A DNA stretch of 64,000 nucleotides, from NCBI GenBank assembly GCA_040954595.2, contig CM082597.2, positions 8,390,343 to 8,454,342 of the forward strand, written 5' to 3'. A program made the position numbers and the translations under genes. Below are positions 9,932-35,547 of this stretch, piece by piece. Position 1 is the first letter of the stretch. Each line of letters begins with the position of its first letter. The notes below the pieces were generated by a model. That model worked only from the letters and a program-made list of their open reading frames with translations, did not search any database and was not told the DNA's origin. The stretch comes from Balanoglossus misakiensis. Lineage: Eukaryota > Animalia > Hemichordata.

Positions 9932-10751
9932 TCAGTTAGCGATACCGTCTTTTCCAAAACATGGTGATGTACAGCAAATAAGTAGACGTGACATAGCCTA
10001 CACCGTAGCCTGGCCAATCCATGTCTTTGTCAGAAACACTTTCACTGATGTCATACTCAGGTTTTTTACGTGTAACCAATGATATCTATGACTTTTAGTA
10101 TTTGGGTAATTTTCTCAGATTAAAACACTCGATAAAATTATTATATTAACTTACTGTACAAAGACAAGTTATGCAGCCATCTTTGATTGTGTTCATATTC
10201 CGTATATACTGACCATCATACAGACAATCTGCAAAGAATTAATAACATAGTGATCACATTTCGTGTAAAAAATCCATTCTGGTCAATCAGATTTCAGTTA
10301 AGGAGAGTACTTACTAAAACAGAAGTTATTCATAACCATTTGCCAAGTGAATGTTTTCAAGTGGTTTGAGAAAATGCTATGCAGCCATGCACAGTTTTCT
10401 ATATCCACTAGATATGTTTAACTCAGCTGTAATTCATTAAAGCCTAAGTATTTCTCGTGTTTATCCATTTTTCATCATCGAAAATTGCCCGTTTTTCGCA
10501 TACATTCATCATGGAATACTACATAATGAAGATATAAGAAAGGTTTGGGCAATTGTAGCTACATGTATATGTTTTCAATTCCTTTGATTTTAAGAATACT
10601 CCTTAGATTCTGTTAAAAACCTTTATGAATCTTTCAGTTTTGTTATAATGAAAAAATACTGGTGCATATTAGGTACATCTGTATAATGTATGTGCACACT
10701 TGAACAAATCAAACACTATTACATAACAAGAGAACATATTCGACTGCTTAC

Positions 10752-12366
10752 CCAATATAGTGTGCTGAACATTGACAGCTATAACCATCTGCAGTGTTGG
10801 TACAGGTACCACCATTCAAACAAGGCGACATGTACTCACATATATCAATAACTGAAATAAACGATGTAAACATAAAACTATAATGATCAAATTTTGTCAA
10901 TATGTTTTTTTTTGCAAGAAACTCAACAAATAGGAAAAGAATTTGTAATCAATATATAAGTAAACCCTTCAATTTTATGCCAAATGTACCTACCTATACA
11001 GTCATCCAAAGTATTGGCACCTTCATGCGTTGTACGCAGTCCTGTTGGACACGGGTTGCATTCTCTGGAACCACTCTCATTCTGGTAATAGTGACGGGGA
11101 CAAAGTACACATGGCTCAAGACCAGTGTTGGAATATGAGCCAACTGTGCATTTTTCTGGAAGTTAAATACAAATTGAAATTTTAATATGATGGTGTATCT
11201 TGGAAATGATGAAAAAAGGCCAAAATAAAAAATATGTGCTGTTTCGATTACCCGACCTACCCTAATTATAACCTGCTGACCCTAAACTTGTTAGAGCTTT
11301 GTAAACCTGGAAGTAAACACAACGATGTTGTCAATCATACAAAATTGATGAGAATAGTGGGAATCACGCAAGAAACGTGATATCATTCTTCTACATTATG
11401 GTTTTTCTGATGTAAAATGCATATTGAGAGATAAAAAAAAGCAAAATAAAAAAAAATCCCTACCTACCCCATTTCTGAAAACCATGTAATCGGAACAGCA
11501 AATACTATTTTTTGGCCTAATAAAGAACTTGGCATCGTAGAATAATCTTCTTACCTTTGCAACTCGCTACTGCAACTGCTACCCCATGTGTTGATGTGTC
11601 AATCGGGCACAAATGACAATCAGTAGAACCATAATCTGGTTGATAAGATCCTTGCAGACATTGTGTACATGGAGCTTTACCATCATCTGAGTAATAGCCA
11701 GGTTTACACAACTCTAAAAGTTAAAAAAGATCACCATTTGACCGTAAACACCATATACTAATAAACTGCATATACTATTTAGTTTTGGATGAACATGCCA
11801 TAAAAAGATGATGTGCGATCTGTAAAATTTAAAGTATTGTCATTTCATGTAATCACTGTATTTTTTCTTCAAATCTCGTTTGTACGTGTTATCAATACCG
11901 TATGTGGAATAAAGTGCACAAGTCTGTCAGTCACAGTGCTAGCTCATGATGTATATTGTGCATTTAAAGGTATACGGTCACATATGCAAATTTAGCCGCA
12001 GTTACCATGGTAAATTGAGATCTAGCCAATCACAGATTTTCAGAGGGTGGCACACGCGAAAAAAAAAGGCCACCACCATACCAGTATGTTTTTTAGAACG
12101 CTCAAATACTCCATTTCAGCCATATATGGGCGTATGCTAATTGGAGGTGATTGTATACCTTTATTCAGAGATAATGTGGTGTTTGTAACACTAGACTATT
12201 TCTCTTACCAATACAGTCATCTAGACTCTTGCTGTGTTTATCGTGTGTACTGTAACCTGATGGACAGGTAATGCATGAGGTTTGACCAGTGGCAATTTGA
12301 TAAGATCCAACAGGACAGCTAGCACATTCATCTCCTGTATCATAAGTTCCAGCTGTACATGTCACT
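10752..12366 (-). CDS. Three GCC2/GCC3 (ephrin-receptor-like Cys-rich) exons and an EGF exon
   Basis: CTAGTYDTGDECASCPVGSYQIATGQTSCITCPSG (12209-12366); CKPGYYSDDGKAPCTQCLQGSYQ (11554-11714); CTVGSYSNTGLEPCVLCPRHYYQ (~10995-11157); PCLNGGTCTNTADGYSCQC (10752-10852). Confidence 0.85.
11217..11518. mobile_element. MITE with GGCCAAA termini (PIF/Harbinger Tourist-like); inverted copy at ~14997-15286, partial near 40030-40103
   Basis: ggccaaaataaaaaatatgtgctgtt...ttttggcc|taa with shared internal CCTACCCTAATTATAACC. Confidence 0.65.
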
Positions 12367-12402
12367 ACGGTGTAACAGATTAAAAAGACAAAGATCATAT
12401 TA

Positions 12403-12615
12403 AAGTGAAGGGGTCATCGCGTCACGTTTGTTTGTTTATAAACATTACAATTCCTGAATTCCACAAATCCCTGAAATTAGATCATACTTAGAATGAACGA
12501 AGCAGCCAACCGTAGCGTAGACGGGGCATGACAGCAACTGAAGATCCTAGTAGGTCGTGGCGACTGCAGTGAGGTTTGTGCTGGTATGGGAGGACATATT
12601 CTCATCAAGGGGGAC
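12403..12615. mobile_element. TTAA-flanked AGTGAAGGGGTC MITE; fuller copy at 33439-33663
   Basis: ttaaagtgaaggggtc..., shared internal GAAGATCCTAGTAGGTCGTGGC; the copy at 33439 ends gaccccatcact. Confidence 0.7.
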
Positions 12616-12658
12616 ACCCATGCGGCGAGGTAATGTATATTGGATAGATGAATACTTA

Positions 12659-15600
12659 CAACAATAACAGTCACTGAGAATCTTTCTAGATGGACAGCAA
12701 CATCCTGAGAACTCATCAGTCGGGGCTCCTGACAGATTCAATTCTGGACAAGCACCATTTGCCTCGATTTTGGTGAGACTGTTGAATTGACTGAACTGAG
12801 TTGTTATTGCACTCATTGTATTATCACCGCAGGTTTGGAGATCTAAACTTGTTACGTTGTCTGTCTTTGCAAGTAATTTCATGGCAACTGTTGCATTCAC
12901 CTACCGTTATGAAAAACACCAAATAGAAAGTTTGGTTTAATGGATTAAAAGGACACAATAGCTGTAACTTTTGGCTTTATTTTCAGTATTTTCCTTCTGT
13001 ATATAAAACACAGTTTCTTGTTCTACTCCAAACAGCATGTTAATATACCCAGTACTTGACTTATCATGTACAAGAAACTGCAGTAGATACACAAAACAAA
13101 CATACTGAAAATGTAGCAAAAAGATACAGCTAATAGAGCTTTTAAAGGGATTGTGTTTGATACAAGACACCGTTTATGTTATTCTACATGTGGATATATA
13201 ATGAATCAATGTTCGTCCACATAAAACTGTAAAATTTTCCAGCAGGACAGAATAATACCTGATAGGCGTCTACTATGGCCATTGTTGTATAGTCACTTTA
13301 AACTTCAACACTGTCTTCAAACGAGTTACACAGGACCGACAACAGTGGTTCAACAGACTGCACGATTCCAAGCAGACTTGACTCATAATATGAGATACAT
13401 TGGTTGGTATCACTTGGAATGGTCATCACAGAGTTGTATACACCTCCCACAGTCAGGAAATAATCCGGAACTTCCTTCTCTGTGAAAAGATCAATATGGA
13501 AGAGAATTCAACTTCAGGCAGACTAGTTGAATTGTCAATACAGTTTTTGCTTTACTCAGCTGGCGAAAAAAATCCAAATTTTGCTAATCCACTCAAATCT
13601 TGACTAATGCCATCTTCTATGCGGTAATGTAGGTATTGACTGGTTATAAAATGATCAGTTTATATAAAGGCACATATAGCAAACTGGAAAACACAAATTC
13701 CCTCGCATATCAGCAATATGCAAAGAAAATCTGAACCAACAGTAACACTGAATTAGTTGGTTATTTTGGTTCTTCAAGTTTATTATCTGCATCAGCATTC
13801 ACATATTATTTTGGGGGCTTAATGAATATTGATATGATATCAGTTCAATTTCAATTATGCAGTAATAGATCAGTAGAAGCCGATACACACCAACACAATC
13901 AGGTACGTAATTATGGGGTAGCCATGTTCCACCAATTATGCAGGTGTACATTCCTCCAGGCGAATCAATTTCTTGAATGAAATCATAACCGGCTTGACAG
14001 GACAATGTACAGGAGAATCCTGAACCCAGTGGTCCTCCAATAACACGGGTGCAAGTCTTCTGGCCACCTTCTGGTGTAAGTAGTGACCACTCTGGACATG
14101 TATCAGCTGAATAACAAAATGAGATGTTGAAAGGTGAAATGTCTCATGTCTCAAAACAATGACACATTAACTTCTAAATGCATATCAAGTAATAACCATA
14201 TCATTTTTTTTATCTTATTTATATAGTATCTGTTTAAAGCCTCTAGACCTGCAACCTTTTGCATTATTTTCATGATTTTATTTTCCAACTTAAATTGGGA
14301 AATCAAAATAAGATTACTGATAGGTACACATGAACATCTCATCAACTTGAGCTGAACACTTACGTTGAACAGAAACATCAAATTGACACTGAGCCTGGTT
14401 GCCACTGTAATCGGTTGCAGTAACAGTCACTGCGATGTAATTCCTGGTTTCAACTGCAGTTCCATTTGGTGGTTCATATATGACGTCACTGATTCCGTGG
14501 TTGTCTACAACAGAGACTCCTGGATATGACACATTGTGTACCACTTCATCAACAAGAATTACGTACGTGTCCGGACAGTCTAAAGTTGGTGGCATGGTAT
14601 CTGCAATCCAATAAATATTTCAAAAGATATGAGACTGTAATCTGCTTGGTTTGTAACCACAATACTTGCCAGCCATTAAAGCGACATAGTAATCTTGAAT
14701 TCAGCTGGGAGAAGAACTGTTCTGTAGGTGGCTCCATGACAACCCCAATTGCTAAACCACTTAAACATCGTCCTTTTTCCCAGTGATGTCGACAACCACT
14801 CCAATGATGGACCATTAAGCTTTGTGATTTCCACAAATGAAAGCAGGCAGACAATGCATGAAATCAAATCAAATCAAATCAAATCAGAATGAAACAAAAT
14901 CAGAATCAAATTAGAATAAAACACAAACAAACATTAAAATCCAATTCCAACATTGGTGATTTCATTCAAGAACTCAATCTGGCGGATAAATTGCTAAGGG
15001 CAAATAAAAAAATATGTGCTGTTCTGATTACATGGTTTTCAAAAATAGGGTAGGTAGGTAGGGAATGTTTTTTATGTTGCATTTTTCTTTTAAATCCTCG
15101 GCCCCTGTAGTGTAGAAGAATAACGTCATAATTCTTACGTGATTCTTGCAATTTTCATAAATTTTGTATATTTGACAATGTTTTTTATACTTCCGGTTTA
15201 GGAAGCTCTAAAAAGTTTAGGGTCGGCGGGTTATAATTAGGGTAGGTCGGGTAATTGGAACAGCACATATTTTTTCATTTTGACCTAATGAACATACCAA
15301 TACAAACAGGTGCAGTCCCATTCCATTGAGCATTAGTAAGATATGATGACTGTTCAGATACATCCCTTCTTTTCCTCACAACTTCCACTGCGGCTGCTGT
15401 TAAAATAAAAAAAATTTTCTGTAAGTAATACTTAATTCATGCTTGTAACACACCGCTCATAGCATGCATTTACCTGATGACCGTGCCTGTTTATGAAATA
15501 CACATTACAGAGTCACGAATTTAGTCGATAATAGAAGAAAACTGCTGACTCAGCATTTTTCACCAATGGTTTGTCTATGGGCAAATTTTTTTTTAATGTA

Positions 15601-16843
15601 ATTTATCTCAAAATAGAGCAAGGTGAACCTTATATTTTAAGTGACCAATGAATTTATATTTACTGGACTGAGCTATGTAGAAAATTTCGTGACAATGACA
15701 ATAGAAGAAGTTTGTTTTCTAGCAATTATCAATGTAATCCTATGGGAAAAAGACGGGTGCGTGCAGTTTTCCGGTTTATGTTTTGCGCGTACATCCTTAA
15801 AAGAAAAGAAGAGATATAAGCGCCACTTTAGTGTGAATAAAATAATGATTTTATACATACTGCATCTGACAAGAGCTCATATCCTTCAGGACAACAGAAT
15901 GTTGCATCATCTTCTTGAATTGGGTTTGCAGAAGATGATAGTTCTGGACAATTGTCTGAACTGTCAATGGCAACCAAAACTGGAAATACACTTGGATGGT
16001 TGGTCAGATAGAAGATTAGTTGAAGACCACATCTTGACAATTCTGCATTGTCGTATCTAGGGCTCAATGGGTCTATGGGTTCGATCAGTAAGTTCAGCCC
16101 CACATCCATTAAAAGCTGCAGGTAAGACGAAAATACAGTCATAAGCATTTGTTTTAAAAGATGTTATGTTTAATATGCTTTATTATTATGCATCTGGCAC
16201 CAAGAACAATAGAATTTAGCGTGTACTAAAAAGCCGTACGGAACGCGTGTTAAATACGCCTTAAGTTTCAAGGCGCCCCAACTCACCGTGTACAGGTATG
16301 TACTGTTATGTGGACGGTTTCAAGACCACCCCACTCCAACGCACGTAAACAAAAAAGAAAGATGACTGCTCGCTGTTTCAGCTGAGCAGTTTACGATCGA
16401 TGGTATCGACAAAATTGAACATCGCATGGTTGTCACACTTGCATGAAAATATTCTCGCAATATGCTTTTTTCTTTGCATTTGCAATCTGAAGAGCAAGTG
16501 AGATAAAATGCTATGAACTGAACAATTTGTTGAGTGTAATATTCTAGACTCCAGAAAGAGTCTACAAGATTTTCTGCAAGACTGAAAGAGACAGTTAGAG
16601 TACCCACCGAATTATCCGATAGCGAGGTGAGACTTATGGATAATGCGATATTGATTGTAACCAGACCAGCAAGTGGAACACATGCTCCTGATGGATCTTG
16701 AGACAGGAGTTGAGTTAAACCATTAACAAGTTGTGTTGTTATTTCTGTACCATAGTAGTTGCCACAGGATTGCTGGTCTGTGATTTCGCCACTACCATTA
16801 TATGACACACTAAGCTGTGCACAGTAGTCAGGAACGTCACGGT
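12659..16843 (-). CDS. HYR exon (14363-14599), Sushi-like exons (~13890-14106, ~15298-15398) and Cys-rich spacer exons (12659-12900, 13260-13480, 15860-16116, ~16500-16842)
   Basis: HYR: PPTLDCP...VVDN...PPNGT...VTVTATDYSGNQAQCQFDVSV. Sushi-like: SCQAGYDF...YTC..GTWLP...PDC. Confidence 0.75.
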
Positions 16844-16968
16844 CTGCAAAGTAATTATCGAATAATTATAAATCCAATTTTCTTCAGGCCAATTTGTTCA
16901 AAGCATAAATGGGTTCAATTCTTTGGGCTTTATTCAGATTTCAAATTTAACCGTATTACTTCATGGTG

Positions 16969-17355
16969 CAGAGGTCGCAGTAAAAATTTTTTTGAGTGCG
17001 TCTTTTTGACGCATTCATAAAAAAAATGTGTCAAACTCCTTTCAGCCTGGTCCTAGACATGTCTAGTTCAATATCCAATAAACAAAATTAGCAACATTTT
17101 GAGTACAAAAGGTTGGGCGCACTAGTGGTTGTTACATTTTGAGTACAAAGTTTGCGCGCACAAGTGATTATTTTGATCCCAGGGGGATATGATAGTCAGC
17201 GGTATGCGGTATCACGCGTATGGTTTCAGTTGACCATTGTGCATATAGAGCGGCCGTTCCTATGCGTCAATATTGACGCACTGATTAAGATATCTGCGTC
17301 AAGTGAGGATTTTTTGCGTCAAATACGCATACTTTTTGCGTAAACGCAACCTCTG
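16969..17355. mobile_element. Non-autonomous DNA element with CAGAGG termini and 6-bp direct flanks ATGGTG
   Basis: atggtg|cagaggtcgc ... gcaacctctg|atggtg; internal TGACGCA/TGCGTCA motifs. Confidence 0.6.
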
Positions 17356-17641
17356 ATGGTGTGTATTAAAGATACAAGAAAAAAAATTCACTTTTTGAAA
17401 TAAACAATTCTCTGTTAATTATCAAGTTCTGTTAATTATCGAGAATCCCCTAAAAGTATATATTTTCTGAAAGAAAATATAGAAGAACATTTTGGTGTGA
17501 CAATTGTTTACACAACTATCATGTGACAAGCAATTTAAATTAACTTCCAAAAACAAGTTTTCTGGATGTTTTGTTTTAACACTTTGAGACATCACTCAAA
17601 TACAACACGTTATCAACCAAACTAAGGGTAATATCTCTTAC

Positions 17642-18866
17642 CTGGTAGTTGAGTTGGAGTTGGTAGAGTCGTAAGACCACCCGTTGTGGCTTTCAGAGTT
17701 GTTGCTGGTTTCGTAGTTGGTTTAGTACTAACATCATGATATACTGTATAAATGAAATTGAATGAATATTTTATATTACACACTGGACATGGGTGTCTAT
17801 ATGATAAGAGTGGAAGAGTTATTTGACCAACTATATACAGATCAATTGCACTGAGCATTGTTATTGCCTCATTTGTGACATAGAGTCTGATTCAAACAAC
17901 GATGATGATGGTAACTAACAATGTATAACTGTTTAACTGTTTACATTGCAGGTATTATGAATTTTTTTTTTCAATTGAAATTTTCACTGTACCCGTACAT
18001 GAAGTTTCTATCAATAAAGCCAAATTTTCTATGTTTTATTATTCATAGTTTACTTTATCATAATAGGAAGTAAACCTACATTTCTTTGAAAAAAAAGTGA
18101 GGAGTGAATATGTTTTCTCCTTTCTCCCACCCCTCACCCCCTAAAAATAATGGTGTCATCCAGGAGCTAGAGTCGTGTCAACTAAGTAAACAAGATCCAT
18201 CCTTACTTTGGAGCTCATAATGCTGAAAAGTGTAGAAATTGGTATACATTCACCTTTTGATGTTAACAGATCTGTCGGTGCCTCAGTTGTATGTTTTCTT
18301 GTTGTTCTTCTTTGGGAAGTGGCAGTATCATCAGTTATCATTTGTGTTTGCCATTCTGTGGTGCCTTCTACCGTTTGCCAATATTCTGTGGTGCCGTCCA
18401 TTTTATTTGTTGTCAAAAGTGTCTCTGGTGTGGTGGCGTCCATTTTGTTTGTTGTCAACAATTTCTCTGGTGTTGTCCATGACTCTGTTGGCATCACATC
18501 ACTTGCATCGTCATACTCTGAAGTCTGGTCTGCAGGAGTAATATCCACAGATTCTGCTGTTGACATCATTTCTGTTTTTGAGATCGGAGCAGATGTTGTC
18601 TTGTATGTACCCTCACCTTCTGTGCTTGACTGCTGATCAGGCTTTTCAGAACTTGCCTCTACTGTTGTCACGACAACAGGCATGGTTACTGTAACCATAG
18701 TAACTGTTGTGGTTGACTTGCTTTTTCCAGTTGTCACAGCCGGTATATTGTCAATGTCCAACACAATTGTCATTCTGGGCGAAGTTATGGCATATCCATC
18801 AGTTGAGATGCTTTTTTCTGTGCCTTCGGTGTAGGGACTAGTTAAATATTCCAGCGTTGTTTCATC
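17642..18866 (-). CDS. Thr/Ser-rich mucin-like exons (18253-18866, 17642-17735)
   Basis: TTPEKLLTTNKMDATTPETLL..., STKPTTKPATT...; splice-bounded. Confidence 0.75.
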
Positions 18867-19411
18867 TGTTGATAAAAATGAACATTACAATTTGAATAAT
18901 CTAGAACAAGGAAATCTAATGTTATATTGTTCTCCACTAACATGAACAGTATTGAATCAATATTCCTGGCAGGAGACAATTTCAAGGTATTCTCATCCCG
19001 GTGTGTGATTCAAATGATATTGTGTTATTATTCTATTGCTTTCTTTAATACAATTGTTTATGAGGGTGTTGAGATTTCTTATTCAAAATACAGTAAAATA
19101 GGAAATTTTCGCGAACGATAAATTTACTGGTGAAAAAAAAAGTCGCTTAGGTTTTCAGAGATAACGATGCAGTGAAATACCAGAACGTGAAAATTAATCG
19201 CCACGTAACAGTTGCCACATTTGATATCATGAACATTTCCTCTTGCGAAAATTTTGCTTAAAAGTGTACCAGATATTGGTGTGCAAAACACAATATCAGA
19301 TATCACAACTAATTTAACAAATTCAGCTATACTCCATTGAAATCATCAGCAACATTGACCTATGTTATACAGTAAACTAATTACATATTGTATAAAATGA
19401 AACCATCTTAC

Positions 19412-20901
19412 CTTCAAGCGTACTCTCAATTGTTGTAACTATTCCAAAGTCTGGAAGTGTAGTAACTTCAAGCTCATCATCCTCACAATGTCGAAATTGC
19501 TTGGAGGTGTCAATAATCGCACCAAAATCAAACTCTCTAACCCTGTAGTTAATTTTACCAGACACCGAATAGACCTTGACATTGAGAGGGGCTTGTATAT
19601 CACCAGAACCAATGGGTGGTTCAAATTAGTCTGTCTAGAGTAATCCAGGGACCAGTTGTGTGGACTTCCACAGTGGTGACAGGGTAACGATGATCCAATA
19701 TTAATAAGCTGAATGATGCAGAAATGCTCTCTGCAAACTAAATAAACAAATCAATCAATCAATATGCAGTACACTAAAAAGATGAACGATACAGTCCCTG
19801 GTTGGTCCTAATACTTTGAAATTTAGAGCAAGACTTACTGTAAAATGGGTTATTTTCGCGAGCATAAATTTTCGCAAAATACGCAAGATCCAAAAAAGAC
19901 AGATTTAACGATGCAGTTAGTGAAATACATGAACGCCAAAATTAATCCTCGCGTAACAGTTGCCTCTTTTGATATTGCGAAAATTTCCTGGCGTGAAAAT
20001 TTCCCGTTTTACAGTATTTGCAACAAATCATTGTCAATGACCTAGTCCCCACTGGATCTTCCCTTGTCCAAATCAGTTGAGACTGGTTTGATTTCCAGGA
20101 GATCTAAACTTCCAGTAAAGAAACAGATGAACACTCTTGACAATTTAAACTTCAATCTTACAAATACTTAAAAAAAATGGCTAGGGAGGTTTCAAACAAG
20201 TTTGCCAAGATGTGACAATTAAAGACAAGGGTATATAAATTAGTTAATAATTGTTTTGTTTCACAAACCTTGAATTTGATGGAGACATCTTCAGGACAGG
20301 CAACAACTGAGTAGGATACAAGAAGAGATGAAGGACTTTCACCATCTGACAAGATGTTGTAAGCATCCTCACTTAGAACCAGACCATCTTCATCAATCAT
20401 GCAGTACGGGTACATGCACATGTCTGTTACCCGGACAACTACAGACACATCATTTGAACCAATCACGTTCAGGCATTGCCCACAAACCTGCAATCACAGA
20501 AACCAAAATCTCCTCCTTTAGACAACACTGGAAGTACTAAAGCCAGCAGGGTTTCTTCAAATACAAAGCGATTATATCAATCTTAGCTGAGAAAATAAAA
20601 AAAACAGCGCAACACACAAAAACGAACAAGATGAAATAAAATTATTCATAACAAAAATTGTTACAAATCACAATGACTCGAAATGACAGACCATCCGGTC
20701 AGTATTGACATCACAGCCAATCATGTACATAGTCTTTCAAGAACTAACGTTATCTATACTTACATGTGAATCTTGAAAATTGGCCATACCAGCAACCATA
20801 CTTGTGTAGAATGTTCCAAATGAACAGGTACCATCAGTTGGTGTCTCACTGTACTTCTCACAAGTTGCATTTAGTCTCAAAGGTACCACAATCTTTACTG
20901 A
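19412..20901 (-). pseudogene. Expansin-like module copy 2 (DPBB exons 20764-20901 and 20270-20487; CBM63-like exon 19412-19737)
   Basis: GTCSFG...AGMANFQDSH|VCGQCLNV...VVVRVTDMC...LVLSEDAYNIL...VSYSVVAC; FSLLILDHRYPVTTVEV...WITLDR...PLNVKV...GAIIDTSKQF. Carries 5-bp and 11-bp deletions relative to copy 1. Confidence 0.75.
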
Positions 20902-21241
20902 CTGCAAAAACAACAACACCAGTATTAAGATAAATTATTTAATATTCAATCAATATGTAATCTTGGGTTCAATCAAAATCACACAACCATAAAACTTAAT
21001 TTATGCACAAAAATTGATGGTTTCATGTTATATGTCATAAACGATACTGATTTTTGAAAAACAGGTGCATTTTTCTTCACCTCCATGACTTGTATACTTC
21101 TGCTGAATTTCAGCCAAATAGTGTGCATTTGGACAGTTGCTGGCAATTGCAACCAACGTGTACAATACCTTTTTCTTTGTGGCAACCATTAGCTGCCCAA
21201 GATGAGTTTACATGCGTAGTTGTTACAAGTAGTATAATTAC

Positions 21242-22190
21242 CTGTTGTTACATCATGAGAAGGTGTCACTGGTTTTGTTGTTGATATTTTAGTTTTTGAA
21301 AGTGGTTCTGAATATTTTGATTGAAATTCAGTGTGTTCGGTGGTCAGTTCTTTGACACTAGTTGTAGGCAGGGATGTACTTGTTTTGGATTCTGTTGACC
21401 TGATTTCATATTCTGTTGTCAAAGACTTTGTAACATCAGGTGTGACTGGCTCAGCTGTTGTAGGGTTAGGCTTGATGTCAGTTGTTTCTCTTTGAGCACT
21501 TGTTACATCTGTTGCAGTTGGGCCTATATCTGTTCTCTCTGTGGTTGTGTCTTCTTCATCTTCAACTGTTGAAAGTATGGTTGGATTGACACTTGCAGAC
21601 TCTGTTGTTGATATTTTAGTTGAAAGTGGTTCTGAAGATTTCGATTGAAATTCAGTGCGTTTGGTGGTCAGTTCTTGGACACTAGTTGTAGGCAGGGATG
21701 TACTTGTATCTACATCTGTTACTATTCTTGTTTTGGATTCTGTTGACCTGATTTCATACTCTGTAACATCAGGCGTGACTTCAGGCTCGACTGTTGTTGG
21801 GTTAGGCTTGATATCAGTAGTTGCTCTTTGAGCACTTGTTACATCTGTTGCAGTTGGGCCTATATCAGTTCTTGTTGCTGTTTCTGTGGTGTCTTCTTCA
21901 TCTTCCATCGTTGAAAGTATTGTAGGATTGACGCTTGTTGTTAACAGAGTTGCAGTTGTGAAAGTCTCGGATATTGCTGAGCTGAATTCATCCTGATCTG
22001 TGACTATAACATGGGTGGTCGAGTGGAGACCAGTTGTGACCTCTTCAGATGAAACTGTTGTACCACTTGTCACTTCAGTTCTTGTAGACCGACTGGTGAA
22101 GGAATCAGTCTCGGGCCCCCGTGTTGTAATGTACACAGGCAATGTTGTTGGACCCTCCTGAGTAGATTGCATCTCATCTGTTTTGGCAGA
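21242..22190 (-). CDS. Large mucin-like Thr-rich exon with internal repeats
   Basis: Repeated SVNPTILST.EDEEDTT...TDIGPTATDVTSAQR..TDIKPNPTT; donor next to 21242. Confidence 0.8.
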
Positions 22191-22252
22191 AAGGAAACAT
22201 GAAGAATAAGCGCTTCTGATTTCTGACATAAAATGTTCACTACTTGTATATA

Positions 22253-22305
22253 ACATACATACATACATACATACATACATACATACATACATACATACAT
22301 ACATA
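22253..22305 (+). repeat. (TACA)n microsatellite
   Basis: About 13 perfect units. Confidence 0.95.
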
Positions 22306-22625
22306 CTGTAAAACGGGTTACATTCGCGAGCGATACATTTTTTGCGAAATATGCGATAGCCAAAATACATGAAAATAAAAAGTCACGTAAATGTTTTTCG
22401 GAGAGAGCTATCCAGTAAAAATAAGAGAACGCGGAAATTAATCCTTGCATAATAACAGTTGCCTCCTTTGATATCGCGAAAAATTTCTCGTCACCAAAAT
22501 AACCCATTTTACAGTACATACAGACAGACAGACAGACTAAACTGATCCCATAAGGTTCCATGGTATAACATATACTGGTATATACCAAATGGGAGCTAAA
22601 CTATGACGCTGAAACACAATCTTAC

Positions 22626-23976
22626 CTTCAAGCGTACTCTCAATTGTTGTAACTATGTCTGGAAGTGAAGTAACTTCAAGCTCCTCATCCTCACAATGTT
22701 GAAATTGCTTGGAGGTGTCAATAATCCCACCAAACTCAAACTCTCTTAAGCCCTGTAGTTAATTTTACCAGACACCGAATAGACCTTGACATTGAGAGGG
22801 GCTTGTATATCACCAGAACCAGTGGGTGGTTCAAATAAGTTATCACTGAGTCTGTCTAGAGTAATCCGGGGACCAGTTGTGTGGACTTCCACAGTGGTGA
22901 CAGGGTAATGATGATCCAATATTAATAAGCTGAATGATGCAGAAATGCTCTCTGCAAACTAAATAAAAAAAATCCGTCAATCAATATGTGGTTCATGTAC
23001 ATTCAAAAAATGAATGACATAGTCCGTGGTCGGTTAGAATATTTTGAAATTAGAGCAAGACTTTTTTGCAACAAATCATTGTCAGTGACATAGTCCCCAC
23101 TGGATCTTCCCTTGTCCAAATCAGATGAGACTGGTTTGATTTCCGGGGGATCGAAACTTCCAAAACATCAATCTTATAAATATTGTTAAAAACATGGCTA
23201 GTGAGGTTTCAAATATTTTTGCCATGATGTCACAATTAAAGGGAATGATTACTTTTAAGTAGCAATTAAAGAAAAGGGTATCTAAAATAGTTAATAATTG
23301 TGTTGTTTCACAAACCTTGAACTTGATAGAGACATCATAAGGACAGGCAACAACTGAGTAGGATACAAGAATAGATGAAGGACTTTCACCATCTGACAAG
23401 ATGTTGTAAGCATCTTCACTTAGAACCAGACCATCTTCATCAATCATGCAGTACGGGTACATGCACATGTCTGTTACCCGGACAACTACAGATACATCAT
23501 TTGAACCAATCACATTCAGGCATTGCCCGCAAACCTGCAATCACACAATCATGTAGCTGTCAAAATGCATAATTATATTTCAACAAACCAACTAACTCCT
23601 TCTTTAGACAACACTGCAGGTTTTGGTTTAAGTGCTTAATCAAATTAAGCTGAGGAAATTTGAAAGAAAAACAGTGCAACACACAAACTTAGACAAACAC
23701 GATGAAATAAAATTATTCATAACAAAAGTTGTTACAAATCACAATGACTCGAAATGAGAGAATATCTGGTCAGTATTGACATCACAGCCAATCATGTACA
23801 AGGACTTTCAGAACTAACGTTATCTATACTTACATGTGAATCTTGAAAATTGGCCATACCAGCAACCATACTTGTATAGAATGTTCCAAATGAACAGGTA
23901 CCATCAGTTGGTGTGTCACTGTACTTCTCACAAGTTGCGTTTACAAAAGTCTCAAAGGTTCCACAATCTCTACTGA
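22626..23976 (-). pseudogene. Expansin-like module copy 1 (DPBB exons 23834-23976 and 23317-23534; CBM63-like exon 22626-22958)
   Basis: SRDCGTFETFVNATCEKYSDTPTDGTCSFG...; TLDRLSDNLFEPPTGSGDIQAPLNVKVYSVSGKINYRA*, with a 2-bp insertion near 22747 relative to copy 2. Confidence 0.75.
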
Positions 23977-24487
23977 CTGCAAAAACAACAACACAAGCAA
24001 GATATTCTTTGCTGCAAGAAGAGTTAATTAACATCCTAAAATGGGTTTGTGTTGTACATTTTCTAATCTGGTGAAATGTGTTTGTGTGTAAGCTTTTATC
24101 ATTTATTTACATATGGGACCTTGTACAGTGGTGATATCATCTACAATTGATCAATTGATGATGTACAGCAGAGAAATTTCCTGATTTGCGCTACTTTCTG
24201 ATAAGGAAACACATATTTACTGGCCATGTTCGGATAACAGCATACATTTGTGTGCCCTCGGGACTGCAAATTACCCCCAAAACAATCTGTTTCCATCGGC
24301 CTTCAGCCTCTAGAAACAGACTGTTCTGGGTTGACTCACAGTCCATATTGCCACTGTAAACATTACATATGCCGGTATACGGTATTGAGTATTTGCCATT
24401 TCTCTGCCACAAAATATATTCCTTTCTTAAATTGTGGCAATAAAAGGACAAATACTGATATGAATATGAATTATACGAGTACACAGT

Positions 24488-25065
24488 ATAATTAAGCAAT
24501 AATTAAGCAATAACCCCCGCCGCGAGATTTGGGTACAATTCGAGACATATAGCACGAGCCGTTAGGCGAGTGCTATATGGAGCGAATTGTACCCAAATCG
24601 AGTGTATACCCGACTGAGGCGGGGGTTATTGCTATTATATTATATATCAACAATTGATTTTGAGGCCTATCAGTGGCATTTTCTTAACGAAACGGCGTCA
24701 GAAAGAGAAATCACGATCGTGAACTAATATGGCGAGGATGAATGTAAACACGAGCGGCCATGATCGAGCATTAAACATGAAGCAGACGACAAAAAATGAC
24801 CAGACGGGCGTCGCGCATGGCAAAGTGACAAATATTCCTACACAGCAATTCCAAAATAAAACGTCCGTAAATTCAACGGTGTTTTCATTTTTTTTATTTG
24901 GTTGAAATACACACGACTGTGGTTCAACCGCACGTTTTCACTACTGCATGCTAGTTCAGGGGCCCGTTTTAGCACTGCCAGCAGTGCTATATGACTATTT
25001 AAGCATCGCTGGATTGAGCTCTCGTCCAATCAGAATGGCGGAGGGTAGCATGATATAATATAATT
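24488..25065. mobile_element. Non-autonomous element with a one-ended subterminal hairpin and no TIR pair (Crypton-like architecture)
   Basis: Nested hairpin gcaataacccccgcc...atttgggtacaattcg...atatagcac...gtgctatat...cgaattgtacccaaat...ggcgggggttattgc. Absent from the paralogous intron next to 21240. Confidence 0.55.
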
Positions 25066-25067
25066 AC

Positions 25068-26420
25068 CTGTTGATACATCATGAGAAGGTGTCACTGGTT
25101 TTGTTGTTGATATTTTAGTTGAAAGTGGTGCACTAGTAGTTTCAGATGTTGTAAATTGTTCATCTGAATCTGTCGTTGTTTTTCTTTCAGTCACAGTGAC
25201 TGCCTGCGTTGATGGCGCCTCATAACCTGCATATGGAAATCAAGTCATTTTGCATTAAAGGGACAAAGTCTCTCTCTCTCACTGCCCTTTTTTCCATTAA
25301 TTATGTTTGATGCAAGACACTTTTTATGTTATTCTACATGTGGATATATAGTGAATCAATGTTCGACCACACACAACTTTCATCCCGTTTGTAGGATATA
25401 AGTCTAGAGTAAAAATCCCGCCCAAATGAATAAATGGTAAACACCGATTATTCATTTTGGCGAGTTTTTCACTCTCGTGTCTACAAGCAGGATGGAAGTT
25501 GTGTGTGGTTGAAGGTTAATTCACTATATATCCACATGTAGAATAATATAAACAGTGTCTTGTATCAAATATTATTAATGGAAAAGGGCAGCGAGAGAGA
25601 GACTTTGTCCCTTTAAATTATGTGAGATTCCAAAGATCTCACTAATGATTATTTAATATAACTATACGGTAAATAACTTGAATGGAATTTGGATGTTATT
25701 GCTACATTTTGCTACACAACCTGTACACACAGAACGTAAACTTGGAAACTGTGCAAATTTGTGCACATTTGTCTCTTCGCATAGAATTAGATTGATATAA
25801 ACTCACTACTATTGTCATTTTCATGACAATTTAGCTCAGTTAAATGAAAATAAATTCATTGGTCAAATAAAATTGTATAGTCACCATATATCGTTAAATG
25901 TTTAAGAATGGTGAAGAAATGCTGACTCAGCTGGGATTTTTTTTCAAGTACACAGTAGACTTAATTCATAGCCTTGTAAATAAAACAAGCATGGTGACCC
26001 CTGTATTATACATATTTTCATTATGCTAACAAAGGAGAAACCAAAAATCCACAATTAAAAGAAATGAGATACTTTCACTTCCCCTGAGAAGACATCTGTA
26101 AGTAAACTTGTCATATTGTTTTCAGATATTCAGTGGATGTTTGTATTTGACGTACCTGTTGTATCTCTGGTTTGAGCATCAGTGTGTACTCTTGCTGTCG
26201 TGGTTACCAGATCATCTGTGTGTACTTTTGTCGCCGTGGTTGCCACATCATCTGTGTGTACTTCTATCGTCGTGGTTACCATGCCATCTGTCTGTGCTCT
26301 CTTGGTGGTTCTCATGACATCTGTGTCTGCAGCTGCTGTGGAGATTTTCATCCGCAACTTCTTCCTCTTCTGTTGCAGCTCTATCAGTTCCATCCATTTC
26401 TGTCGTCCCAAGCTCTGCAG
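25068..26420 (-). CDS. Mucin-like exons (25068-25226, ~26155-26420)
   Basis: Thr-rich; the 3' end of the 25068 exon matches the 3' end of the 21242 exon; VHTDD..TT repeats. Confidence 0.65.
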
Positions 26421-26659
26421 TTGACATGTCTGTGACCATTTCCGTTTCTATGACAATGGAGGCAATAGAGGTTATGCTGATTGAATTCTGTTTGTCAAGT
26501 TTCACTTCAACATTCAAATAGCTTTTAAAGCCTCTCTGTTGTTTTGGAAGCGGGCATTCTGAACCATTTCTCCATATATCACACTACATGTACATGTACA
26601 TAGAAGTTATCACAGTACTGTTTCAGCACACCACGATGTTTATAACAACAGTATATACA

Positions 26660-29600
26660 CACCAGTAGTTGTAGTAGAAGGTGTTGTTGGCAACACAGTC
26701 ACAACATCTCCTTCACACATCAAAGGGTTTGGATGGTTTTGTGTGAATCCATAGTCACAACTGAATGACACTATAGAACCAATGTCGAAATCATTGCCAT
26801 GTCTCTGACCAGTGACTGGTGTACCAGGATCTTGACATTCTTCTGAGGTCAAGAAGCAAAGTATCTTATCAATATTAAATCATCAACTCAGACAGAAGTC
26901 ATTCCTTACAAAAACATTCTATATACATCATTCTACAGAATTCATTAGCCTTTTGAATTTCTATATAAGTTTAAATAATTTCTATGGACATCTATATATT
27001 TGTATGTAGTTTTCGAAGTTGCTTAAAATGTTTTTCGGAAATAACGATGCAGTGAAATACAAGAAAGTGAAAAAGTAGTAGTCGCAGTGTAACAGTCGCC
27101 TTTTTTGATATTGCAAAAATTTCTGGCACAAAAATTCCCCATTTTACAGTATTCAAACAACACATAGTGTGTGAATGTCATGAATTTCATCAGAGTATCA
27201 CTATTATCAAACAGAAGTGATTGCTTCTCTGAAAGTATTAAATATTCTTTTCTACGTTACCCTGGGCAACACATCTTGGTATGGTGCCATTCCATGTTCC
27301 ATCTTCAGTGCAATATCTCCTGGTGTTACCAAGTGCTTCATATGCCATGTTACACTGGAGTGTAGCAACACTATCATACCAAGTGCCATCACTATATTCC
27401 CATGAGCCATCTTCAATCACAGTCAACAAACCACAGTCAACACCTAGAAATAAGTAATTTGAACTTTTGGTAACTCTTTCCTCTATATTGTAATCTTATT
27501 TTCTTTTGTCAGACACCCCATTTTTAAGGTGTTCATATTTCTCACACTTGTCAGGGATATTTTGTCTCACACTCGCCTGCGACTCGTGTGGGACAGAAAA
27601 TCTCCAACTCGTGTGAGAAATACAATCCCAGGTCCTTGGCAGTGAGATTCTATTATTACTGTTACTTACGTTGACAGACAGGAGGAGAGGAATTCCATCG
27701 GTAATCACCATCTTGACTGCTGTAGGTACACACTCTGACATGGCTACCATATAAGTTGTATCCAATGTCACAACTGTAGGTCACTTCACTCTGATAGTTG
27801 TAGTTGGGGTCATTGACCTCGTAGCTGCCATGATCAATACTCTCTGGTTCACTGCAGACAGCAGCTGTAGGAAATACACGTAGAGTTGAGTTGAAGGAAG
27901 AGCCTGGGATAAATCTGTAATCACTTTAAAGGGATAAAGTCTCTCTCTCGCTGCCCTTTTTCCATTAATTATGTTTGATACAAGACAGCGTTTATGTTAT
28001 TCTACATGTGGATATATAGTGAATCAACGTTCGACAACACACAACTTCCATCCCACTTGTAGACACAAGAGTGAAAATATCGCCAAAATGAATAATCGGT
28101 CTTACCATTTATTCAATTTGGGCGAGTTTTTACTTTCATATCCTACAAACGGGATGAAAGTTGTGTGAATATAGTTGAATGTTGATTCACAGTATATTCA
28201 CATGTAGAATAACATAAACGCTGTCTTGTATCAAACATAATTAATGGAAAAAGGGCAGCGAGAGAGAGACTTTGTCCCGTTAAAGAATATGAAAAAGAAA
28301 AACCCCTCTCTTCTCACATTGAAAAGGTTACAGCAGACTGTAGAAACTGTATTTAACACGCTTTAAATAAGCCAGTTCCATGCGGCTTTTTAGTGCACGC
28401 CAAATTCTATTGTTCTCGGTACCAGATGTATAATATCAAGGTTTTCTGTTTTAAAAAAAAATATTGACTTACGTGTGCAAGTTGGGAAGTCAGCATCATA
28501 CAGGCCTTCCACTGTACACAACAGAGTGGACTGTCCATTCAGTTGAAAACCCTCCAAACAATAGAATGTAATTGTGCTATTGAACTCCACCAGAATATCA
28601 CCAGTTTCCTCTATGTTCCAGACTAGGGATCCTTCACGTGGATTTGGAATTGGGATTGGGTTGGAAATGTTGGGCACAATACACGTCACGGCTGTACAAG
28701 ATAAAAAGACAATATTGGTGAAGTACACACAAATTAATATTTGTTTTAATGGAATGACAAACTATAGCCATTACATAGGACACTAAATGTCAATCTTTGT
28801 ACTATTCGTACATGAAACTTTGCTTTCAAATACAACTTACAGACCAACATAGACAGTCATGCTTATATAAGTATGACTATCTATTAAAGTAACATTCATA
28901 TCATGATTGTTGTTTTACACTGTGTTTTCAAAGTAATTGTTGCAGTAAACCAATTGCCTTGCTTGGAAATATTAAAAGGGAAGTCCTGTCCAGCTGATTT
29001 ATGCATAATTTCTACACAATGTTTTTTTCTGAAAGAATGACCTCAAAGCTACCCAATTATGTAGCTGAACCGGACTTCCCCTTTAAATGCTACCAGTGAG
29101 CTTGTTTGTCTTTGTAAATACACTCAAGTATTAATCCCCTTTTTCTCAGAATTCAATGCATCTTCATGCCATGAGGTGAGAGGACACTTTTGTTAGCAGG
29201 AGGGAAACAAATCCAAAATAAATAATAACAGTGCAAAGTTGGTCTGCTGACTTTCTCCACATTTCATTATTGAATTACGGCAAAATTATGAAATCCAATT
29301 ATGAAATTCAGCTTTTTGTCCATTTTTTGTTGCTGCAAATTCATTGCGGTATAAAGGTCAATAATATGACAAATCTTGGTTAAAAGTATACAGTCACCTT
29401 CAATTTACACATTCCCATATATGGCTGAATGGCGTATTTGAGCATTCTAAAGAACATATGGTGGCGCCTTTTTTCCACGTGTGCCACCAAATGAAAATCT
29501 GTGATTGGCTAGATTTCAATTTTCCATGGTAACTATATATAGCTAATTTTCCATGGGTGATCATATACCTTTAACTCTATAGTTTAACATGATACTTACG

Positions 29601-32600
29601 AACACATGATTGGTTAAAAGTGTAGACATCATACATTGAGAGACCAGTTTCTCCAGGTGGCAGATAGAATCCACCTGTGCCGTTATTTGCATATAAGAGA
29701 TAGCCTTCTTCACAGGAACATTGAAAACCACCTGCAGTGTTTTCACAAAGTTGATCACAAGAATGTGAAGCACATTCATTTATATCTACAAAGAAAGAAC
29801 ATGGATTGGATTAAAACAATGTACGTTCAGTAAAATTGAAAGTATTGTCATTTCTTTTAATCGTGAATTTTAGGATTATCTTGTGTACGTACAAGATGAA
29901 TCTGTGATAAAATAAAGGCGTCACCTTGCTTGCTTTTGAAATACAAGGCCATGAATTTAGTTGATAATAGAAGAAACCTGCTGACTCAGCATGGTTCACC
30001 AATGGTTTGTCTATGGACAAAAACCTTAAAGAAATTTATCTCAAAATAGAGCATTGTAACCACACAATTTTATTTGACCAATGAATTTATATTTACTAGA
30101 CTGAGCTATGTGTAAAATTTCGTGAAAATGACAATAGTAGAAGTTTGTTTTCTAGCAATTATCAATGTAATCCTATGAGAAAAAGACACCTGAGATTAAA
30201 AGGTCATTCCAAAAATTTATATTTATATTTATATTTACTAGACTGAGCTATGTGTAAAATTTCGTGAAAATGACAATAGTAGAAGTTTGTTTTCTAGCAA
30301 TTATCAATGTAATCCTATGAGAAAAAGACACCTGAGATTAAAAGGTCATTCCAAAAATTTATCCGGAATTCTGAAATAAGTTCAGAATGTGTTAAATGTT
30401 AAAATAGTGACTTGAAGTTATGTTGCAAGTGACTTATTTATTTCTCACACTCCTGGCATGCTGGGAGTGTGAGAACACAGTGTGAGAACAAATTGTTCTC
30501 ACACTCTCACTGAATCGAAAGCTGTATATGACGCGAGCGCTGATTGGTTGACAAAGCGTTCTTTCGCTACGCGCGCTAAATGTTATCCAATGGCGCGATG
30601 TGTATTACAGGCACAGAACTACAACGTGCCCCCAGACGACAGTTCCAGAGTCATTTATTCAATGTTTTTAACGATTTTGGCTAATTTGTGGCCGTGTGAG
30701 AAAAATAATCTCACACACCAAGGACCTGGGATCATATTTCTCACACTCGTCGGGGATATTCTGTCCCACACTCGCCTGCGGCTCGTGTGGGACAGAAAAT
30801 CCCCGACTCGTGTGAGAAATATGATCCCAGGTCCTTGGGAGTGTGAGATTCTATTAGTCTCACCTTTGCATGCAGTTCCATTCACATCTGGTTCAAATCC
30901 CACCAAACATGCACACTGATAGTCACCATCTCTATTTTCACAGTCTTGATTGATTCCACACAGTGCCACCAATGTACTACATTCATTGATATCTGAAATG
31001 TTATTCATCAAGATATGATCAAAATACCACAGGTCCACTGGTAAATTCAGACCAACAAGTTTAGCTGGGAAGCACCAGACCAACAGGAAATGTTCACAAA
31101 CAAATTTTCGCGAACTATGCAAGAGCCAAAACAAAAGACGTTTTTGCGTAAAAAACAATTTTCAGTGATAACAATGCAGTGAAATACAAGAACATGAAAA
31201 TTAATCGTCTCATAACAGTTTCTGCTTTTGATATCGCAAAAAATTTCTTTGTCGCGAAAATTTCCCGTTTTACAGTAATCAATGAAAAATAAAATTACAA
31301 AAATCATGAAATTTCTGACAGCCATAGATTTGCATGGCATGAACTGTATGTCCTATCAGCATGTAGTTTAGGTGACATTTATGATAAATAGTCAAATTAC
31401 TGGAGTGATCGATTACGGTACCTCATAAGCAGACAACCACATGAAGACCAATCTTGATGTGAACTTACCAATGCATGATGGTATTGCACTATTACACTGT
31501 AAATCGGATTGACAAGTCAGGTAATCAGCACCATTTAATTCATAGCCAGCATCACAATAGAATGTGATGTTACTGCCCATATAATATGGTCCACTATCAG
31601 GGACAGCTTGTAGATGTGGGTCTGTTATGAGTATATCACTGCAGTTCAATCCTGCAAGTAAAAAAAATAAAACACTATGTGGATGCAGACTTGATTGTGG
31701 TATATATATTGGGTATCTGTATTCTGTCACAACTTTAACATTTTCACCCCAAGTTCCCACTATAAAAGTCCAGATACCATTGACTCCTTTTTTTCTATTA
31801 TCGACTAAATTCATGACTCTGTATTTCAAAAACAAGCGTGGTGACCCCTATATTTTATCACAAATTTTCATTATACATACATAGGATAATCCAAAAATTA
31901 ACAATTAAAAGAAATGACCATATTTTCAATTTTACTGAATGTACATCCTTAAATGACTTACGTTGACAGTATCCTGGATCTCCAATCCAAGATCCATCTT
32001 CACCACATGTAGAGACAGTGTAGCCAGTCAGACTGTAGCCAGATGGACATGAGTAGGCAACGGTTGTTCCAAAAATCAATGAATCACCATTAACAATTTC
32101 ATATGATAAGTACCGTAGTTGTCTACATTCGGCGGTGGACACTCACGAGCTGTTTGGATAAGATGAACAGATAACATTACAAGTGTGTTAATACTAGGAA
32201 AATGGTTTAAAGGGACAGAACATGTAGCAGTAACTCTCACAATCCTGCATATTTTCAAGTTACCAGTGTCTGGTTTAACATTCAGAGTGTAATGTCCCAA
32301 TTAGACACCCATGTGGAATGTAGCAACCAGCACAAAGTGCCCCATCATAACGCTATGGAGAGTATTTCAACTTGAGTCAGTGATTTTTATGAAAACATGA
32401 CAGTGAACACCCTGTGTTATACTTTGTTTTCAAAACGACTCATCACACACTTTAAAGCCTCTAGAGCTGCCAAATTTCACAATTTTTTTTCTTTTCCACA
32501 GTAAAACCTTTCAAATCTATGGTGATGCATACCACGATAGCTAGCTGCATACTGTTTGTATGGAGGCTGATTTTAATAAAATGGGTACGGCACCTGTTTA

Positions 32601-33365
32601 ATACATTGCACGTTTAAATTGCAACATACAGCCACAATCAGGCATTGATGACATGTTCCTGTATCCCTATCAGTAAGCTTAATTATTTCAATGTACCAAT
32701 CTACGTCAGAAAATAAAATCTGAAAATAAATGCAAAAAGTGGCAGCTCTAGAGGCTTTAAAGCATTGAAAGGTTCAGAGGACTAACATTTTTCTGAAAAT
32801 CCGTCTCCTAAGTGTGCACTACAATGGCAGTTTAATTGTTTTCAAAAATATCAACTTGCGCTCGCATTGGGGCACAAGTGGACCCCAGACACCATCTGCT
32901 TGGCATTCCAATGAAGTCACATTATTTATAAACTGATAGCCCTCAATGCATTGATAATAAGCAACGCCACCATACACTGTACTGGTAACATTGGTAAGAA
33001 TTCCATTGCTGCACTCAGGGGGTCCACCACATGTTATTCCTAAAAAATAAACAACAAATTAGTGTCATTCAAGTTGTTGCTAACAATAGATTCAAGAGAC
33101 AAATTAAGTCTCTCTCATCACTGCACTTTTTTCATTAATTATCTTGGATACAAGACACCAGGCTAGGCATATTTGCATAGCTGGTACGACTTATACACGA
33201 AAGAGTGACCTCAAAGCTACAAAATTATGTAGATATCAGCTAGACCGGACATCCCCTTTAACTACTGGATAACCGTCCGAGCATTGGAATGAGACAGAGA
33301 CATCATAGCTTCTATCATCTGTACTGGTCACCACGCCCTCACCAATCACAATTTCGGGACAGTCT
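26660..33365 (-). CDS. Sushi/CCP exons (26660-26844, 27260-27442, 27670-27864, 28472-28692, 31468-31651, 31961-32149, ~32860-33039, 33260-33365) and EGF-Ca exons (29612-29784, 30863-30992)
   Basis: C..P..G...C..GY.L.G...C...G.W....P.C patterns; DINECSTLVALCGINQDCENRDGDYQCAC. Confidence 0.88.
28976..29082. mobile_element. Short TTAA-flanked AGGGGAAGTCCGG MITE; a relative at ~33207-33257 truncates a Sushi exon
   Basis: ttaaaagggaagtcc...ggacttcccctttaa; shared gacctcaaagctac..aattatgtag. Confidence 0.65.
30090..30362 (+). repeat. Direct tandem duplication (~140 bp x2) of an intronic repeat also present near 15520-15745 and inverted near 25760-25930
   Basis: Identical blocks tatatttactagactgagctatgtg...ccaaaaatttat. 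Confidence 0.85.
30438..30855. mobile_element. TCTCACAC-motif hairpin element; copies at 39604-39960 and partial 27535-27653
   Basis: Internal hairpin atttctcacactcgtcgggga...tgtcccacac..gtgtgggaca...tccccgactcgtgtgagaaat shared among the copies. Confidence 0.7.
32456..32756. mobile_element. TTAA-flanked AGCCTCTAGAGCTGCCA MITE (Kolobok-like); second copy at 46376-46697
   Basis: ttaa|agcctctagagctgcca...tggcagctctagaggct|ttaa. Confidence 0.8.
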
Positions 33366-35120: not shown

Positions 35121-35547
35121 CTTTAAAGAAACAAGTGACCTATCGGTCAAAAGAGCTCTGCTGACTTTAACAGAGAAACCTATAGCTGGGCAATGATATG
35201 AATACCCTAGGTTTTAATCATAACAATTGTATTCTATTAAACAAAACCGAACATAGACATCACAAGTATTTAATATCCACATTCAGCTTGATTCATTGTG
35301 CTAAAGAAAGAAATAATTTATTCCTAAAGAACAACATCAAAAGGAAGTACCAAGGTTCTAATTTGCATATTCATGACCCGATCAAAATTCCAATAAAACA
35401 AAATCAGGTAGGGGCACCATAACACACATTCTACCAAATTTCAGCTCCATCGTACATGTATTTAGGGAGAAGATTTTTTTACCAACAATTCTATTTTTAG
35501 ATCTAATTTGCATATTTATGACCCCATCATATCCAAATTAACAAAAT

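Follow-up and report, generated by a model that had tools for sequence, protein, structure and literature searches.

The expansin fold is known chiefly from plants and microbes. Microbial expansins of the EXLX type, represented by EXLX1/YoaJ of Bacillus subtilis (PDB 3d30 and 2bh0) and by proteins of Clavibacter (4jcw) and Talaromyces (7wvr), consist of a DPBB domain followed by a CBM63-type sandwich and occur as small secreted proteins or as fusions with CBM or GH5 domains. Creep by EXLX1 depends on Asp82, and cellulose is bound by its Trp125, Trp126 and Tyr157 (PMC5072189). Expansin-related folds in animal genomes that have been attributed to horizontal transfer include the expansin-like proteins of plant-parasitic nematodes (10.1101/637728), the whitefly protein Bta15239 with its single DPBB domain (PMC11800479), and the annotated expansins of Oikopleura and bivalves, which have been called unconfirmed against contamination (10.1101/637728). 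Here we describe a 64,000-nucleotide stretch of the hemichordate Balanoglossus misakiensis (contig CM082597.2, positions 8,390,343 to 8,454,342), hereafter the window, in which two copies (A and B) of an expansin-like module lie inside a block of exons resembling the Drosophila gene Uninflatable (Uif). We consider it probable that the window holds a likely dead gene copy whose intact orthologues are modelled as Uninflatable-like membrane proteins, and that the modules, held on mucin stalks and lacking the residues for wall loosening and cellulose binding, likely bind a non-cellulose ligand at the cell surface.

Uif is a large type I membrane protein with a C-type lectin domain, three CUB domains, about eight Sushi domains, HYR domains and many EGF domains (PMC3340373). 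In these sources none of the nematode, whitefly and marine cases is described inside a mosaic receptor of this developmental type. The nematode proteins have the reverse domain order to the hemichordate module, and the whitefly protein has one domain where the hemichordate module has two. The literature matches listed in our search, which mostly lay outside subscription journals, held no description of hemichordate expansins, and the word 'expansin' is absent from the text and two supplementary files of the hemichordate genome paper.

Expansin homology of the window modules

An earlier note, made from the letters of this stretch alone, had proposed two expansin-like copies within 19412..23976. 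Both are present on the minus strand at these limits, each as three exons, all six exons have AG/GT ends, and the motifs quoted in the note were found on inspection in the region of both copies. The three exons of each copy had also been taken as phase-compatible, and this did not hold: exon 3 of copy A has two extra bases and a stop, exons 1 and 3 of copy B lack 5 and 11 bases, and neither copy has a continuous reading frame as the sequence stands.

A hidden Markov model (HMM) of bacterial expansins was built from 62 sequences collected with a Clavibacter seed, one duplicate locus (L004) having been removed beforehand, and the module copies were scored in spliced form with an X placed at each frame break. 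The results showed that copy A scored 55.7 bits, with both domains contributing, and copy B 52.1 bits, while the best of 1000 shuffles reached 2.4 bits and the reversed sequence gave no reported match. The same model was also run against the open stretches of the window in six frames, 2039 of them; the four that ranked highest belonged to exons 2 and 3 of copies A and B (E 3e-6 to 3e-5), and the next came at E 1.3. Profile comparison with hhalign gave probabilities of 95% for exon 2, 91% for exon 3 and 1% for exon 1. By itself exon 1 had no significant match to Pfam, to the bacterial HMM or in hhalign; in copy A it is 60% identical to residues 1613-1664 of the Ptychodera flava orthologue described below. 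Against Pfam DPBB_1, exon 2 of copy A scored 18.8 (E 0.002; gathering cut-off 28.8), the Saccoglossus orthologue 31 over its three modules and the P. flava orthologue 17.9, and the cut-off of Expansin_C was passed by secreted paralogues only. On the bacterial HMM the orthologue modules scored 36-69 bits. Sequence searches of the PDB returned two matches each for exons 2 and 3, with fungal EXLX1 first for exon 2 and domain 2 of B. subtilis YoaJ second (E 1.1) for exon 3, both of them weak. By sequence profile, then, the window modules are homologues of the expansin superfamily (EXLX), a DPBB domain 1 directly followed by a CBM63-type domain 2, in agreement with the two-domain identity put forward earlier.

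An Atlas search with exon 2 gave scores all under 0.9, with DPBB-clan or unnamed entries in the top rows, and is taken as a lead only. None of 25 candidates from a word-index search with exon 2 among proteins of 133-2000 residues was related, and the true orthologues exceed that length. A word-index search with an EGF exon kept one of 11 candidates, a generic insect fibrillin-like protein, which was uninformative. The one match among 594 stretches in a metagenome scan was rejected as a chance resemblance in an unrelated bacterial open reading frame, and tblastn against plasmids found no match.

Copies A and B both match module 1 of P. flava (60-61% identity; copy A 61%), and the duplication that separates them is therefore lineage-specific. 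Between the two copies, divergence of the domain 1 exons is 12% at synonymous sites but 1.8% at non-synonymous ones (pS 0.12, pN 0.018), against 10-12% in the introns, a pattern that points to selection after duplication. A member of a repeat family of about 200 bases lies inside intron 2 of copy B.

Intact orthologues and their architecture

A HMMER search with exon 2 of 1.84 billion representative proteins returned six matches, of which three were hemichordate: Saccoglossus kowalevskii XP_077862127.1 (E 1e-32), P. flava XP_070533744.1 and S. kowalevskii XP_006812919.2. The other three (P0005-P0007) were unrelated repeat proteins and were set aside. No echinoderm, amphioxus or mollusc relative appeared in this search, which also missed the bacterial expansins. 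Intact relatives of the window gene were thereby identified as RefSeq models, namely XP_077862127.1, with 4825 residues and three expansin modules, and P. flava XP_070567428.1, with 4527 residues and two modules, the latter found with residues 450-1175 of the long Saccoglossus protein. Among the 120 proteins listed in that second search only these two carry the module, and no protein is named Uif. None of the 117 long Sushi/EGF proteins other than the models of the two hemichordate orthologues has the module, and none is a clear orthologue.

Both orthologues, as modelled, are type I membrane proteins with a C-type lectin domain, LDLa, three CUB domains, Sushi and EGF repeats, a mucin-expansin cassette, HYR domains, Ephrin-like repeats, an EGF array, LamG and a single membrane helix. 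A Sushi domain is split by the cassette, which is 1500-1800 residues long; its first half covers 43-44 of 54 profile positions, and all 54 are reached once the distal piece is joined. In the window, as in both orthologues, that piece is preceded by a basic furin-type site. Ser/Thr make up 30-57% of the stalks, which are nearly free of Cys, and the tethered modules are acidic (isoelectric point (pI) 4.1-4.6), with 8 Cys in four of five. Where microbial EXLX proteins are small and secreted or fused to CBM or GH5, and colinear with the hemichordate module over about 190 residues, the tethered modules are intron-split and repeat on mucin stalks within a membrane protein of 4500-4800 residues. The intact orthologues and the fold test given below support the earlier proposal that the module was domesticated by an animal and sits on mucin stalks within a mosaic protein. 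An NPxY-type motif in the cytoplasmic tails of both P0002 and P0032 suggests endocytic sorting, which we presume to be its role.

The likeness to Uif extends over the domain types listed in the introduction. Unlike the hemichordate proteins, which have two HYR domains and the mucin-expansin cassette, Uif has three HYR domains and two FA58C domains, and FA58C found no match in either hemichordate orthologue. One of the Uif FA58C domains presumably sits in the slot taken by the hemichordate cassette. This intact architecture, an expansin cassette inside an Uninflatable-like protein, appears to be undescribed.

Fold and functional residues

Module 1 of P. flava was folded with AlphaFold from a 31-row alignment that included bacterial expansins (pLDDT 78.9). 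The best 12 rows of a Foldseek search with this model were all expansins, with TM scores of 0.76-0.79 to microbial expansins, and its best PDB match was a fungal expansin. Structural alignment with an expansin gave Z 20.1 and a root-mean-square deviation of 2.5 over 193 residues, and the best single-domain relative Z 12.3. Barwin, RlpA, GH45 and kiwellin were rejected as the identity of the module, since they covered domain 1 only with Z of 12 or less. A single-sequence fold of exon 2 (pLDDT 43.6) was not used. As modelled, the tethered module is a two-domain expansin fold.

Seven tethered modules were then compared with EXLX1 at its functional positions. The equivalent of Asp82 is absent in all seven (Val in 6, Ala in 1), and none has an aromatic at 125, 126 or 157, the columns being gapped at 125 in window copies A and B and, in copy B, at 157 too. 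In the groove of domain 1, Asp71 is present in 7 of 7, and the Cys pattern is that of the Cys-rich bacterial type, with Cys at 73; at the Thr12/Thr14 groove positions the N-terminal alignment shifts from run to run. Judged by these residues, the tethered modules are homologous to expansins yet fall short in two features that define expansin function, Asp82 and the aromatic triad, and cellulose binding and wall creep are therefore unlikely. The earlier note's suggestion of algal cell-wall binding is accordingly argued against as far as binding of the EXLX1 type goes.

That the modules nevertheless work as expansins, binding and loosening the algal or plant cellulose of food particles, has in its favor the complete two-domain fold predicted above and the fact that acorn worms are mucociliary feeders (PMC4729200). 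Set against it is the loss, in every tethered module, of residues that in EXLX1 have been linked by mutagenesis and by structures to creep and to the binding of cellulose (PMC5072189), and we hold it to be most improbable. Such a role suits the secreted paralogues better, given that the second secreted module of P. flava keeps Asp82 and all three aromatics.

The main rival is that the modules of the intact gene bind no glycan and instead space, stiffen or cross-link the mucin ectodomain, whether as structural beads or as domains for protein binding. This would fit the disappearance of every known substrate-contact aromatic along with Asp82, the variable module number (2, 2 and 3), pairwise identities of 32-61% across lineages and the acidity of the modules. 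We nonetheless rate it as unlikely, as Asp71 is kept throughout, module 1 is conserved between the window and P. flava about as well as the adjoining Sushi and EGF exons, and fly Uif itself has putative carbohydrate-binding domains (PMC3340373).

Secreted paralogues and origin of the module

Hemichordates also have secreted tandem expansins, S. kowalevskii APU50764.1 and P. flava XP_070533744.1. The GenBank name of the former is 'expansin-yoaj protein-like protein 170', and the protein thus already bears an expansin-like name, though it is apparently undescribed. These are small two-module proteins with a hydrophobic N-terminus, unlike the giant tethered form; they share 8 Cys per module with most tethered modules, to which their own modules are 23-34% identical, and are 34-42% identical to bacterial expansins. 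In their second modules most or all of the canonical residues survive, and the first modules are partly degenerate: both Saccoglossus secreted modules have Asn at 82, with three aromatics in module 2 and two in module 1, and secreted module 1 of P. flava has none of Asp82 and the aromatics. By the canonical residues of their second module, the secreted double expansins P0003, P0008 and P0009 qualify as candidate genuine expansins of animals. Two of them, P0008 and P0009, end in a hydrophobic C-terminal tail that may be a glycosylphosphatidylinositol (GPI) signal.

A tree was made of 30 sequences over 196 columns, with 11 hemichordate modules and 19 of the 62 bacterial sequences, hand-picked across genera, one of which (L025) spans only about half of the module. 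All hemichordate modules formed one clade (support 99.9/100), shared by secreted and tethered forms, and the tethered clade (100/100) was nested among the secreted first modules at 90.4/96 and 95.6/99. With bacterial outgroups only in this tree, a microbial, horizontal origin of expansin in hemichordates, as the earlier note had suspected, is likely.

Vertical inheritance from early eukaryotes with loss in most animals, or a donor that was a eukaryotic microbe and not a bacterium, is the competing account. Expansins are present in amoebozoans, stramenopiles, haptophytes and fungi (10.1101/637728), the best PDB match of the module is fungal, and the outgroups of the tree were all bacterial. The identity of the secreted modules to bacterial expansins argues the other way, as does the absence of the module from the 117 other long Sushi/EGF proteins, none of them a clear orthologue, and we regard this account as possible yet on balance doubtful.

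State of the window locus

The Uninflatable-like block (Table 1) corresponds to the central part of the intact orthologues, from about residue 452 to 3185 of the 4527 in P. flava. Its exons are colinear with both orthologues; identity is mostly 55-76% to P. flava and mostly 40-63% to Saccoglossus, which makes an enteropneust source likely. The Sushi, CUB, EGF, HYR and Ephrin_rec_like exons around the modules exceed their Pfam cut-offs, which bears out the Sushi/CUB/EGF/HYR neighbors named earlier. No match in the window, even at E 1, was obtained for the lectin, LDLa, LamG and membrane parts or for CUB1-2, and the signal peptide is absent as well.

Table 1. Positions in the window of the Uninflatable-like block and of its exons discussed in the text.
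Feature	Position	Strand	Description
Whole Uninflatable-like block	10751..35130	-	CUB3 to first EGF beyond three Ephrin-like repeats
Split-Sushi first part	26663..26842	-	first three quarters; Pfam Sushi positions 1-46 of 56; interrupted by mucin-expansin cassette
Copy A exon 1	23834..23976	-	start of domain 1; phase 1 to 0; in frame
Copy A exon 2	23316..23534	-	remainder of DPBB domain 1, with linker; intact; phase 0 to 0
Copy A exon 3	22626..22958	-	CBM63-type domain 2; 2 extra bases, stop near 22750
Mucin stalk exon between copies	21242..22177	-	Ser/Thr-rich; open frame; internal duplication
Copy B exon 1	20764..20901	-	5-base deletion; out of frame from main acceptor
Copy B exon 2	20269..20487	-	intact
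Copy B exon 3	19412..19737	-	11-base deletion near 19630
Mucin stalk exon after copy B	18254..18865	-	
Split-Sushi end exon	15298..15396	-	basic furin-type site, then last strand of split Sushi domain
HYR exon	14363..14601 (limits approximate)	-	Pfam E 9e-10; 71% identical to P. flava

Seven frame lesions were read by eye off three-frame displays, rather than from a systematic table of all exons, three of them in the expansin modules and four in other exons: the Sushi exon at 33364 reads into a stop, the Sushi exon near 32150 and the mucin exon near 26450 carry frameshifts, and an in-frame stop interrupts the exon at 13480. An open frame running across the exons with 5′ and 3′ ends was not found at this locus. 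Unbroken retroelement frames of 1534 and 900 codons lie within the window, and sequencing or assembly noise is therefore an unlikely cause of the lesions. With the 5′ and 3′ parts missing as well, the notion of an intact gene at this site has to be given up, and by its sequence the locus is most likely a frameshifted, truncated pseudogene. The Sushi exon in the 32861 region ends at a GC donor, either mutated or belonging to a natural GC-AG intron.

The locus could still be alive if it were a chimera with the flanking VWC and EGF exons, rescued by exon skipping and cryptic splice sites, or if the lesions were assembly errors. Its splice sites are mostly canonical, an AG four bases inside exon 1 of copy B would bring that exon back in frame, and several broken exons are phase 1-to-1. 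Exon 3 would still be broken in both modules, an in-frame stop would remain near 13300, the 3′ junction to the VWC exon at 10230 is apparently out of phase, deletions of 5 and 11 bases are atypical as read errors, and long retroelement frames nearby are intact, so that we think survival of the locus very unlikely.

The block is bordered by VWC and EGF exons, which have no counterpart in the orthologues, and by transposons. It stands between two copies of a 1.1-kb block that holds two VWC exons (8652-9746 and 43655-44778; 95% identity between the copies), and further VWC exons lie at 48243 (with a stop ahead of the donor), 47200, 46890, 10230 and 8388. Ahead of CUB3, at 36500-39300, are two calcium-binding EGF exons, the second apparently truncated, and a mucin-like exon with a stop and a frameshift, all lacking from the orthologues. 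F-box-like and DUF1280 frames at 41206-42647 (+), between the VWC and EGF exons, probably belong to a mobile element. Retroelement pol frames occupy 2-4603 (+) and 5259-7958 (-), one of them with a SCAN domain and with integrase ahead of reverse transcriptase. DDE_Tnp_4 transposase and YqaJ-like nuclease frames lie in 48488-57845, where 48488-48973 and 53473-53949 form a 486-base inverted repeat pair. A palindromic repeat family of 360-410 bases, resembling miniature inverted-repeat transposable elements (MITE), recurs in introns (7864-8281, 9083-9494, 25245-25625, 27925-28292 and 44117-44526).

Discussion

Our proposal for the history of the module begins with an expansin acquired by the enteropneust lineage, probably from a microbe, which would have turned into a secreted, tandem-duplicated protein. 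The first module of that protein would then have relaxed and, in the form of an exon cassette of phase 1-to-1, have entered the loop of a Sushi domain by shuffling, prior to the split between Saccoglossus and Ptychodera, genera that diverged over 370 million years ago (PMC4729200). In the intact protein, the O-glycosylated stalks would extend the modules, which are acidic and disulfide-rich, into the mucus layer, cleavage by furin would fall after the cassette, and a disulfide between the two Sushi halves would keep the cut product tethered. The domain 1 groove, in which Asp71 is kept, may bind a mucus, microbial or host glycan and would do so without loosening it. That the modules displayed in the mucus coat of the intact gene's product would bind a ligand other than crystalline cellulose is roughly an even call.

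Several observations weigh against this interpretation as a whole. The AlphaFold input was biased toward the expansin fold by the bacterial expansins in the alignment, and it models an orthologue rather than the window. The intact architecture is that of gene models, and an older Saccoglossus model, P0014 (3097 residues), omits the whole cassette, which may reflect alternative splicing, an old annotation gap or wrong models; the orthologues were likened to Uif by domain inventory. The tree has long branches, which could distort the nesting of the tethered clade, and bacterial outgroups without plant, fungal or protist expansins. Many of the broken exons in the window are symmetrical and skippable in principle. 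Finally, copies A and B differ in exon 3 by 8 non-synonymous changes and 0 synonymous ones, at odds with simple purifying selection, and the selection test over all 211 codons gave only p = 0.04; gene conversion followed by decay is one possible reading of exon 3.

The window locus itself is probably dead, and its own value is thus lower. Its worth lies in what it shares with its relatives. The survey of Oikopleura, bivalve and other cases (10.1101/637728) left marine-animal expansins open between real genes and contamination. For acorn worms, the question of a real gene is settled by intron-split modules that lie between Sushi and HYR exons and are conserved in three lineages. The hemichordate modules form a graded series from the canonical secreted to the partly degenerate to the tethered form, and offer natural variants for the expansin fold without Asp82 and the aromatic platform. 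It is also rare to see a domain of likely foreign origin shuffled, as here, into an ancient receptor of the animal cell surface. Two fates may be represented here, a secreted protein possibly still loosening food cellulose, and a rewired module grafted into an Uninflatable-class receptor as a new animal lectin fold that would catch microbes or mucus glycans in mucociliary feeding; we offer this last picture tentatively, as one that has a real but minority chance of being right.

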